Source of the DNA: a virus
Virus genome (UHGV): UHGV-0000037
DNA length: 35,580 nt
Reading direction: 5' to 3' (one strand)
Part shown: piece after piece, positions 24,774 to 26,890 of the stretch
Layout of the letters: every line of letters starts with the position of its first letter
Numbering within the stretch: position 1 is the stretch's first letter
The notes under the pieces: model-generated
Databases searched by the model: none
What the model was told of the DNA's origin: nothing
What the model saw: only the letters and a program-made list of their open reading frames with translations
Made by a program: the position numbers and the translations under genes

Positions 24774-25364
24774 CTAAAAAAAGAAGTGTATTATTGCCCA
24801 AACAGCTATAACGATGATTCCCAGCCCAAGAGCCGATTCTAACTTATCTTTGGCAGTCATTTTTACTGTTGTAGCGGGCGCAGGTAAGTCTTGCTGCTGT
24901 GGATTTTCTGTTAGTTGTTTACGAGAAGAAACATCGCCCCTGTTAGTTTGCTTCATGTTGATTACAGATGCGTTATGGGCATTATCAGCAGCAATTGACT
25001 GAAGTTTTACAAAAGTTTTTGAATCTGTTTTAGCCAGAAGTAACCTATTTCCCGTAAACATTGCCTTAAAAGTGATAGTTTTTTTCGTCTTGTCCGCCGC
25101 ACCAAGCAAACCTCCAATGACCAACCCTGCACCACCAAAGATTAATCCACCAAGCAAACCTGCGCCTGCCGCCTTACCTATACGGCTTTCCTCTTCACTA
25201 TCCGCAAGTTCAATCGATAAAAGCTCTTCTTTCAGATTTAATACAATATTTTCAGGAAAGCCTTGTTTTGGTTTTTTGGCAAACACGATGGTACCGAACC
25301 CCATGCTTGCCCACCCTTTAGGAAAACTTCCTGCGATAACCTGAATCCCTGCCATGTTCATCAC
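24774..25364 (-). CDS. Membrane protein with glycine-zipper segment and C-terminal TM helix (repressor operon, gene 3)
   Basis: GKAAGAGLLGGLIFGGAGLVIGGLLGAA glycine-zipper; C-terminal LGLGIIVIAVWAIIHFFF; likely start is ATG at 25355 (AAGGTGA upstream). Confidence 0.55.
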   Translation of the reverse strand: MMNMAGIQVIAGSFPKGWASMGFGTIVFAKKPKQGFPENIVLNLKEELLSIELADSEEESRIGKAAGAGLLGGLIFGGAGLVIGGLLGAADKTKKTITFKAMFTGNRLLLAKTDSKTFVKLQSIAADNAHNASVINMKQTNRGDVSSRKQLTENPQQQDLPAPATTVKMTAKDKLESALGLGIIVIAVWAIIHFFF

Positions 25365-25445
25365 CTTTTACATTAAAATTTCAGAACGCAGCATGATGCC
25401 GCCTTTGTCTTTTTTCTGATCCCATGGTAATTCAGCTGTTATTTT

Positions 25446-26432
25446 CTATTTAAGAATAAAACGGTACTTACTGTCAGGAGTGCTTTGCTGATCAAGTAGC
25501 AGTGAACGACATGGAGCAGTCAAAACCCGAGCATAACTACCATCAGGGCTTATGTTAATGTAACAAACCTTGCCCTTAACACTATAATTTTCGGGGACGG
25601 ATGCCTTTGCTGATACAGTAAATTTAAGGGTATGCCAGCCCGTTTTTTGCTTGTAGCTTGAAACCGAATGGAAATCATCTGAGTACTTATTTAACCCTGG
25701 AAACATGCTGCGCAGTGCGGGGATGGAATCTTCTATTATTTTATCGTTGGTTTTAATGTTAAAAACGCTGGTTTCAGTAGAAGCTACTGCTTTGGCATTT
25801 CCCCATTTACCAGCGAACACAATCATTCCCACGAAAAATATTGCTACAAGAACTAACACTCCCCCCAACACTACTACATGAGGCTTCCGGCTTCTGGTTG
25901 GTACAGTTGCGACTGATTTTGCACCGCTTTCCGATGGAGGTGATAGAGTTTTACTCTCATCACGAATATTCAGCAGATCATCAAAATAACCAAACACAGC
26001 CTGCAACTGCTCTTTGTCTAGGCCTTTAAGATGGGTTGTACCGAAATGCTTCAGACAGTATCTGTCACGGTCAAGACGATACCCAGGGTCAGTAAGCGCC
26101 ATTATTTTGCTGACCAGAAGATTACAGTCCTTCATATTCTGGATCTGTTGTGCATATCTCTGAAGGATCTCAACCGCACCATGATAATCAGCCGCAGTCA
26201 TTTCATTAACTGTTTTGGTATTAAGTTTCGTGTGGATCGTCATCCATAGCTCGCGCTTACTTTCCCCCAGATCAACCAATTCATCCATCAATCTGTGTAA
26301 ATCGCGTTTTTGCAGCAACGAAATTGGTTGCTGGGCCGAAGGAAGTATGTCAGCAGAATAGTTATGAATGGTAACATCACCGCTGACAACGTTACCCACA
26401 TCCCCGTTAACTGTTTGCTTCTCTTTACTCAT
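25446..26432 (-). CDS. Single-pass membrane protein, ~185-aa cytoplasmic N-domain and ~120-aa C-terminal domain (repressor operon, gene 2)
   Basis: ATG at 26432-26430 overlaps the repressor stop (ATGA); one hydrophobic helix HVVVLGGVLVLVAIFFVGMIVFAG; no recognisable catalytic motif. Confidence 0.6.
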   Translation of the reverse strand: MSKEKQTVNGDVGNVVSGDVTIHNYSADILPSAQQPISLLQKRDLHRLMDELVDLGESKRELWMTIHTKLNTKTVNEMTAADYHGAVEILQRYAQQIQNMKDCNLLVSKIMALTDPGYRLDRDRYCLKHFGTTHLKGLDKEQLQAVFGYFDDLLNIRDESKTLSPPSESGAKSVATVPTRSRKPHVVVLGGVLVLVAIFFVGMIVFAGKWGNAKAVASTETSVFNIKTNDKIIEDSIPALRSMFPGLNKYSDDFHSVSSYKQKTGWHTLKFTVSAKASVPENYSVKGKVCYINISPDGSYARVLTAPCRSLLLDQQSTPDSKYRFILK

Positions 26433-26890
26433 CTTCTCTTGGTATTTTTGTTCATTATTCCACCTGTTCCTATGGTTACGTTACCTTTGATAACATTCCC
26501 CAGAACATCTCCATGAATAACCTGTTCCGCCCGTTCTCTGGAGGAGCCAGTAGTCAAGGCCGACAAAACTGAACCTTTGACCTGTAATGGTGCCTGCCGG
26601 TAGTGCTGCAGTAACTCCATTTCATCACGTGATAAAGTTATACCTGATGACTCCCCGGTAAGAATGAACTGTACATTGGCCCCAATTCTTGCAAAGGCTG
26701 CAAGTAACTCACCTCCGGGAACAGCAACCCCTCGTTCATATTTCCCCCACATTTCTCTTGAAACGCCACAAAGGGCTGCTACTTCAGCCTGCTTGAGTGA
26801 TAACCGCGAACGCTCAGCTTTGAACCGCGACGCGCAAAGAGAATCAAAATTCACATAAACCTCATTGACAATGAGAACAATAGTTCTCAC
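26429..26890 (-). CDS. Prophage repressor, XRE-family HTH
   Basis: HTH ...LSLKQAEVAALCGVSREMWGKYERG...; divergent from the ner-like gene; probable true start is the GTG at 26854 (GAGG 5 nt upstream) rather than the track GTG at 26890. Confidence 0.75.
   Translation of the reverse strand: MRTIVLIVNEVYVNFDSLCASRFKAERSRLSLKQAEVAALCGVSREMWGKYERGVAVPGGELLAAFARIGANVQFILTGESSGITLSRDEMELLQHYRQAPLQVKGSVLSALTTGSSRERAEQVIHGDVLGNVIKGNVTIGTGGIMNKNTKRR

Follow-up and report, generated by a model that had tools for sequence, protein, structure and literature searches.

A terminal motif common to a prophage repressor and the adjacent membrane protein marks a candidate repressor-membrane partner cassette

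A matched terminal motif in a prophage repressor operon

We analyzed the virus genome UHGV-0000037, a stretch of 35,580 nucleotides (nt) hereafter referred to as the window, and focused on a minus-strand operon that encodes an XRE-type prophage repressor, a membrane protein of 328 amino acids (aa), and a glycine-zipper membrane protein of 193 aa. According to the annotation of identical RefSeq copies, the window is an Escherichia coli prophage with a BcepMu-like transposable layout, and its nearest cultured relative is Escherichia phage PhiKM, classified as Bcepmuvirus. An earlier note, made from the sequence of this DNA, had described a repressor-coupled operon with two uncharacterised membrane proteins; its open reading frames (ORFs), their strand, and the overlap between the repressor stop and the start of the 328-aa gene (ATGA at 26432-26429) are as it reported. 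It missed the terminal motif that ties the 328-aa protein to the repressor, as well as the identity of the cytoplasmic domain of this protein, which is Flk_N. The C-terminal end of the repressor reads ...VIHGDVLGNVIKGNVTIGTGG... and the N-terminus of the 328-aa protein reads MSKEKQTVNGDVGNVVSGDVTI, within which the motif (Table 1) is near-invariant across the 328-aa family. With the motif score defined as the best 14-mer under BLOSUM62, the repressor tail and the N-terminus of the 328-aa protein score 36; cognate motif classes score 36-41, while shuffled sequences give 15.5 +/- 5.9. The motifs fall into two unrelated classes, class A (that of the window) and class B, which score 12-16 against each other.

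We further surveyed this arrangement in four IMG/VR scans, which yielded 130 loci and, after duplicate removal, 85 distinct pairs. In 72 of these 85, the ORF immediately upstream carried the matched motif. These comprise 67 pairs of class B, 2 of class A1, and 3 of class A2, and their neighbouring genes overlap or are separated by 2-22 nt; in 6 further loci, the tailed ORF lies farther upstream with another gene, such as RnlAB, in between. Another class A-like variant, also matched, was found in a BcepMu-like prophage (L151). The upstream ORFs are XRE repressors (HTH_3 in 29 of 34) that have a conserved pre-tail helix in common, with the consensus DExELIxxYRxAPLAVKAAALAALTAG across an alignment of 34 diverse tail-bearing repressors. 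P2-like prophages of Yersinia, Edwardsiella, and E. coli, phage 520873 among them, have a repressor with the C-terminal sequence ...SG.GNRVAGRDY.E.KK, and the next gene, between the repressor and the integrase, encodes an Flk_N protein beginning ...G..NRVAGRDF.E. Among the BcepMu-like prophages examined, the tail and Flk_N are both present in the window, A33, DEF2, L013, L017, and L151, and both absent from the ST131-type L003, KP12, L152, and L018. Strain A33 carries a different helix-turn-helix (HTH) domain in its repressor, but the C-terminal half with the tail is identical and the same 328-aa gene follows, indicating that the tail travels with its partner gene.

The motif is also carried by proteins of different domain type, namely Flk_N proteins with a transmembrane (TM) segment, zinc-ribbon proteins with TM segments, and a 171-aa polytopic protein. 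A genome-contig scan with a narrow pattern returned 6 Pseudomonas loci. In Pseudomonas, as in L162, the gene behind the tailed repressor encodes an unrelated protein that combines the same N-terminal motif with a zinc ribbon and TM segments, after which an Flk_N gene may be present or absent. At one zinc-ribbon locus (L117, 1594-2484), the repressor tail reads GHRVAGHTFNE and the adjacent zinc-ribbon membrane protein NNRVAGHTYNE, with an unusual RD-to-HT change common to both. The DNA cores of the two motif copies are identical at 24 of 27 positions, and the Flk_N gene of the same locus keeps RD. The common change and the near-identical DNA suggest gene conversion or co-evolution between the motif copies. 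In an Edwardsiella prophage (L010, 1068-2499), the tailed repressor is separated from the Flk_N gene by an RnlA/RnlB toxin-antitoxin pair encoded on the other strand, which suggests that the repressor-partner junction is itself an insertion point for cargo.

Two other explanations were rejected. Fusion of repressor and partner by frameshift or readthrough does not fit the junctions, which vary from a 4-nt overlap to 22-nt gaps and lie in different frames; recent DNA duplication does not fit the window, where the two motif-coding stretches are unlike at the DNA level. As far as sequence comparison can tell, the pairing of a repressor with a membrane partner through a matched motif occurs in many prophages. 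In the literature searched, we found no description of this pairing and no mention of the motif, of Flk_N in phages, or of PH_gly_zipper.

The repressor and its control region

The features of the operon are collected in Table 1. The nearest solved relatives of the repressor are P22 C2 and 434 cI. Its ORF as listed (153 aa) starts at GTG 26890 and lacks an obvious ribosome-binding site, while GTG 26854 has GAGG 5 nt upstream and gives a 141-aa repressor. Homologous repressors measure 140-141 aa, and the true start is probably GTG 26854. A perfect palindrome, GAGAACAATAGTTCTC, lies at 26873-26888 inside the spacer of the promoter-like site that faces the early genes; it occurs as one perfect copy in the window and is a candidate operator. 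Family searches with the short tail-bearing repressors match HTH families only, and no autocleavage domain is recognisable in them.

Table 1. Features of the repressor operon and its flanks (positions in the window)
Feature	Position	Strand	Evidence or remark
XRE-type prophage repressor	26429..26890	-	HTH_31/HTH_3 matches; divergent from ner-like/IclR-HTH early genes
HTH DNA-binding domain, residues 24-70 of the 153-aa ORF	26681..26821	-	
Conserved pre-tail helix LSRDEMELLQHYRQAPLQVKGSVLSALTTG of the repressor	26546..26635	-	
C-terminal repressor tail motif HGDVLGNVIKGNVTIG, class A	26468..26515	-	matches N-terminus of next gene's product
Promoter-like site TTGACA-17-CACAAT facing the early genes	26865..26893	+	contains the palindrome GAGAACAATAGTTCTC
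Bitopic inner-membrane protein of 328 aa, made up of the four parts in the next rows	25446..26432	-	
N-terminal motif NGDVGNVVSGDVTI of the 328-aa protein	26367..26408	-	matches repressor tail
Cytoplasmic helical Flk_N domain, residues ~30-160	25953..26345	-	PF27202; pLDDT >90 (AF2)
Single TM helix, residues 185-208	25809..25880	-	hydropathy maximum 3.05
Periplasmic alpha/beta domain, residues 222-328, two conserved cysteines	25449..25769	-	pLDDT >90 (AF2)
193-aa PH_gly_zipper membrane protein, independent cargo gene	24774..25355	-	phrog_12025
Glycine zipper of the 193-aa protein, residues 60-87	25095-25178	-	
C-terminal TM helix of the 193-aa protein, residues 172-193	24777-24842	-	
GC-rich 7-bp hairpin between the convergent 193-aa gene and 158-aa plus-strand ORF	~24755-24772	.	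sequence
AF2, AlphaFold 2; pLDDT, predicted local distance difference test.

An Flk_N domain fused to a periplasmic domain

The cytoplasmic part of the 328-aa protein belongs to Flk_N (PF27202) by a precomputed match on an identical protein (P0001). It matches the NCBIfam Flk model (E = 2.9e-12), a partial match that was the sole NCBIfam lead for this protein, and residues 22-150 of E. coli K-12 Flk (BLASTP, E = 1e-5; HHalign, probability 96.8%, E = 2.4e-10). The protein is not an Flk orthologue by the PRK10715 equivalog, scoring 46.6 bits against a cut-off of 353 bits over residues 19-147 only. Flk, which regulates the flagellar export switch, faces the cytoplasm and is held by a C-terminal anchor (PMC13344023), from which an N-in topology follows for the 328-aa protein. 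The single hydrophobic segment agrees with the single-pass topology of the earlier note, and the large soluble cytoplasmic domain that it proposed is indeed there as Flk_N, but the 107-residue domain behind the TM helix had been overlooked. This domain is homologous to the mature part of signal-peptide lipoproteins and is therefore placed in the periplasm. A profile search over 1.8 billion representatives returned 112 relatives, in which the commonest form has 185-270 aa and consists of Flk_N with a C-terminal anchor; by this comparison, the 328-aa protein is a fusion of two independent modules. Fold searches with the 328-aa protein gave no significant match. Scans of the 328-aa and 193-aa proteins against Pfam (a set without PF27202) and PADLOC gave nothing significant (no PADLOC match at E < 0.01), in line with the earlier assessment that neither protein belongs to a named defence family.

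Chromosomal Flk proteins (E. coli K-12 flk, L006 2451-3446; P0135, P0141, and P0144) have at least two Flk_N repeats and lack the N-terminal motif, whereas single-repeat, motif-bearing forms occur in prophages. This difference suggests that Flk may be a domesticated prophage gene. A further set of Flk_N proteins (class C; L106-L109 and L154) has an N-terminal helix, DERLAKLAE, followed by NVNFGTQVNIG, and the repressors upstream have a different C-terminal domain ending ...EPKVERILKLVVNR, with no common motif. Among cultured phages, tblastn with Flk_N proteins found only Escherichia phage 520873 (NC_049344.1, L008 2780-3400), in which the gene is unannotated, carries two frameshifts, and lies between the repressor and the integrase.

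The homology to Flk residues 22-150 is real and raises the question of flagellar lysogenic conversion, in which Flk_N would act on the export gate (FlhA/FlhB) and alter motility or flagellin display, or exclude flagellotropic phages, the common motif being incidental. Flk keeps the export apparatus in early mode, possibly via FlhA_C (PMC13344023). However, the identity is only 21-25%, the prophage protein has one repeat against at least two in Flk, and flagellar conversion explains neither the matched repressor tail nor the zinc-ribbon proteins found in the same place, and we regard it as very improbable.

The periplasmic domain also occurs outside this fusion. It stands alone as a signal-peptide lipoprotein in the same slot of L007, L017, L151, L152, and L175. 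Two of these sister BcepMu-like prophages (L017 and L151) have neighbouring genes for the adaptor and for the periplasmic-domain protein; in L162 a zinc-ribbon adaptor replaces Flk_N and the periplasmic-domain protein is encoded next door, and in KP12 and L152 the lipoprotein directly follows the repressor with no adaptor gene. In one distant relative (P0081), the periplasmic domain is fused to two Ltp repeats, Ltp being the family of the TP-J34 superinfection-exclusion lipoprotein (PMC3952083). The 328-aa protein itself has no match to the Ltp family PF07553 and no lipobox. The links of the periplasmic domain to exclusion, namely a recurrent lipoprotein behind repressors and one Ltp-fused relative, are circumstantial, and its most likely role is either exclusion at the envelope or sensing.

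A variable cargo slot between repressor and lysis genes

The operon lies on the minus strand between the late/lysis block, also on the minus strand (holin at 23779-24177, SLT transglycosylase, and onward), and the plus-strand early block (ner-like, IclR-type HTH, DUF3102, transposase, B, gam, through to mor). The earlier note had read this as an accessory slot of a Mu-like phage between the immunity and late-control regions. The accessory character and the place in the repressor operon, a position of lysogeny-expressed cargo, hold; the layout is that of BcepMu, with the repressor on one side of the slot and the holin/transglycosylase lysis genes on the other. Comparison of the same slot among related prophages, as that note had proposed, identified a cargo hotspot of variable content: about 99 of 5426 E. 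coli genomes carry the version of the window, about 450 carry a lone 118-aa repressor with dam and other genes, and other prophages have DUF2441, a 203-aa protein, or lipoproteins. The prophage that carries this slot occurs in hundreds of E. coli genomes, ST131-type strains included, and the several uncharacterised envelope proteins of the slot merit phage-exclusion testing.

The third gene had been given as 196 aa, beginning 80 bp after the 328-aa gene. It most likely starts at ATG 25355, preceded by AAGGTGA and used both by PGAP (the Prokaryotic Genome Annotation Pipeline) and by phrog_12025, which yields 193 aa and a 90-nt gap; the predicted glycine zipper and C-terminal TM helix stand. The protein matches phrog_12025 (E = 2.4e-128) and belongs to PH_gly_zipper (PF27000) by precomputed matches on the homologues P0026 and P0032 (weak), which are 71-97% identical to it, while an NCBIfam scan found nothing significant. 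Its AF2 model, built from 8 near-identical sequences, has a pLDDT of 35.7, too low for reliance, although the order of strands and helices is compatible with a PH-like fold interrupted by a glycine-zipper hairpin. The stem-loop noted earlier behind this gene is present (RNAfold, -12.9 kcal/mol for a 41-nt stretch) and fails the T-tract criterion of a terminator scan.

Citrobacter BcepMu-like prophages carry the 193-aa family behind a different repressor (121 aa, Phage_CI_repr) and without an Flk_N gene. Moreover, the third position behind the 328-aa gene varies, holding the 193-aa protein, the soluble 203-aa protein with DUF2441, a 94-aa protein, a second lipoprotein paralogue, or nothing. These results mark the 193-aa protein as independent cargo. 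They also bear on the model of the earlier note, in which the 328-aa and 193-aa proteins form a sensor and membrane-effector pair for exclusion or abortive infection that is merely co-transcribed with the repressor. That model can draw on the repressor-operon position, the variable slot, the glycine-zipper and TM features, and the one relative that links the periplasmic domain to Ltp repeats. Yet each family is found independently of the other, the 328-aa family having four other third genes or none, and the 328-aa gene co-varies with the repressor tail instead; with no defence-family match either, an obligate pair of this kind appears very unlikely.

Several further observations were made in and around the slot. 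A DUF2441 protein recurs in the slot of several BcepMu-like prophages, including DEF2 and KP12 (L004 2204-3800; L171; L007 4581-5147), and in DEF2 it is accompanied by the soluble 203-aa protein, which matched no Pfam or NCBIfam family. Convergent to the operon, a plus-strand P-loop ORF of 158 aa (24260-24736), which RefSeq calls 'ABC transporter ATPase', aligns to positions 1-157, and no further, of the profile phrog_3787 with its 242 positions; the ORF at the same position has 242 aa in PhiKM and the common ST131-type prophage, and the ORF of the window thus looks truncated. In strain M9682-C1 (NZ_CP024275.1; L001 22671-23561), the mor end of the prophage adjoins gspL without its N-terminus, suggesting that the transposable prophage has inserted into this type II secretion gene.

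A proposed repressor-membrane partner cassette

On the basis of the observed architecture, homologies, co-occurrence, and motif matching, we favour reading the operon as a cassette of repressor and membrane partner, with a fused periplasmic domain that probably serves exclusion or sensing and the 193-aa protein as independent cargo, and put its probability at roughly 55%. The physical binding of tail and motif, with its direction and consequence, is inferred from co-occurrence, class matching, and portability, and any exclusion activity is putative. The immunity repressor, with its HTH, conserved helix, and tail motif, is translationally coupled to a membrane-anchored protein bearing the same motif at its extreme N-terminus, and the two motifs, or the repressor tail and the Flk_N domain, would contact each other. 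This contact may keep part of the repressor pool at the inner membrane and thereby link repressor availability, and hence immunity or induction, to the state of the membrane protein, in the manner of RseA/sigma-E or PtsG/Mlc; it could possibly take the form of beta-strand or amyloid-like templating as in Bab/Agp. In this lineage, the TM anchor of the partner has become fused to the periplasmic domain that sister prophages encode as a separate neighbouring lipoprotein, and the 193-aa PH_gly_zipper protein is cargo that moves independently, in a position of expression during lysogeny.

A wider proposal, which we offer tentatively and consider doubtful in its full extent, is that a portable terminal motif forms a physical link between the master repressors of prophages and inner-membrane proteins of the tail-anchored or bitopic type, maybe by homotypic beta-strand or prion-like templating, such that a membrane or periplasmic event captures, releases, or inactivates the repressor. 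This would be an immunity/induction switch not recognised before and common to P2-like and BcepMu-like prophages of Enterobacterales and Pseudomonas, with Flk as a domesticated relative of the partner.

Several observations weigh against the cassette. Class B shows little fine covariation, since 109 of 2000 permutations attain the value observed, and class C Flk_N proteins follow HTH repressors without a matching tail, so the motif pairing is not universal. The AF2 model leaves the N-terminal motif disordered (pLDDT 43-45) with no docking seen, and the class B motif (NRVAGRDY.E) is highly charged, unlike typical amyloid cores. The loci are phylogenetically related, so that their counts overstate independent events, and the argument rests on roughly two to four independent motif classes. 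Finally, the lipoprotein domain is also found without any adaptor (KP12 and L152), and the fusion in the 328-aa protein could therefore be a neutral accident of a crowded slot.

The weak fine covariation within class B would fit a fixed common receptor, that is, a third party (a protease, a chaperone, or Flk_N itself as a pseudo-ligand model) that recognises both motif copies, which are terminal and disordered, and co-regulates the turnover of the repressor and its membrane neighbours. Against such a receptor, two unrelated motif classes each remain matched, the paired RD-to-HT change in L117 is easier to explain by mutual recognition or gene conversion, and the structural resemblance is not significant; we consider this quite unlikely. 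A somewhat stronger case can be made for a guard resembling a toxin-antitoxin (TA) or abortive-infection system, in which the repressor would act as antitoxin, its disordered tail neutralising the membrane protein until loss or inactivation of the repressor (by curing, or by the antirepressor of an invading phage) frees that protein to arrest or kill the cell. The architecture of a type II TA module (an HTH protein with a C-terminal tail, the 4-nt ATGA overlap, and a downstream partner), weak MqsA_antitoxin matches in 8 of the 34 tail-bearing repressors, the lambda rexAB position, and the abortive-infection precedent of Bab/Agp all accord with it. Even so, the partner shows no homology to any toxin family or PADLOC family. 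The partners have a single anchor and a small helical or zinc-ribbon domain and do not look like proteins that form pores; Flk, the homologue on the chromosome, is a regulator without toxicity; and the HTH protein, divergent from the early operon, has the position of the master repressor of the prophage. A guard of this type is thus unlikely, and the repressor-membrane partner cassette remains our preferred reading.

If this reading is true, a membrane partner dedicated to the repressor and matched to it by motif would offer a concrete, testable route out of lysogeny, and swaps between class A and class B motifs should re-wire the pairing. Motif signalling between adjacent genes, known from cell-death effectors, would then reach transcriptional control as well, and the Flk_N domain of the flagellar regulator Flk would gain a first functional context.

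Comparison with known systems

The proposed cassette would combine two known kinds of system, namely signalling by motifs common to adjacent genes and the control of transcription factors at the membrane, in a variant for which we found no description in the literature searched. Membrane sequestration of transcription factors is known from RseA/sigma-E, PtsG/Mlc, and BlaR1/BlaI. The 328-aa protein resembles these in its putative binding part on the cytoplasmic side, its single TM helix, and its periplasmic domain, as well as in being encoded with its putative target regulator, but there is no relation in sequence or fold, and most members of the 328-aa family lack the periplasmic domain. In ImmR/ImmA of ICEBs1 and Gram-positive phages, an XRE repressor is likewise co-transcribed with a dedicated partner that governs its inactivation; ImmA is a soluble metalloprotease, whereas the window system has no protease motif. 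The rexA-rexB genes of lambda lie downstream of the immunity repressor and are co-transcribed with it, in the same slot as the cargo of the window; there is, however, no homology, PADLOC finds nothing (Rex included), and the two proteins of the window do not depend on each other's presence as an obligate pair would.

Ltp of Streptococcus phage TP-J34 (PMC3952083) is, like the 328-aa protein, an envelope-exposed protein encoded beside a repressor and expressed in lysogens, and P0081, with its two Ltp repeats, is a relative of the periplasmic domain; the window protein differs in lacking the Ltp repeat, in being TM-anchored rather than lipidated, and in its Gram-negative host. Flk (Fluke/RflH) of Salmonella and E. 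coli has the homologous Flk_N domain, and both proteins face the cytoplasm with a single membrane helix C-terminal to that domain. Flk, however, carries at least two Flk_N repeats, lies at the chromosomal pdxB-flk locus, and lacks both the N-terminal motif and a periplasmic domain, in contrast to the one repeat, the motif, the 107-residue periplasmic domain, and the prophage repressor operon of the window protein.

Bab/Agp (BASS11) is an E. coli prophage pair of adjacent genes with a common terminal motif (bioRxiv 10.1101/2024.11.07.622273), and the genomic signature of the window operon resembles Bab/Agp and the BASS pairs most. As in Bab/Agp, NLR/Bell, and HET-s/NWD2, a short C-terminal motif of one gene product recurs at the N-terminus of the protein encoded next to it, and is portable between domain types. 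The amyloid-signalling pairs differ in joining a STAND/TPR (NLR/STAND) sensor to a membrane-targeting Bell/HeLo effector, where the prophages have an XRE repressor with an Flk_N or zinc-ribbon anchor. Their motif sequences also show no relation to those of the prophages, of which class B carries charge.

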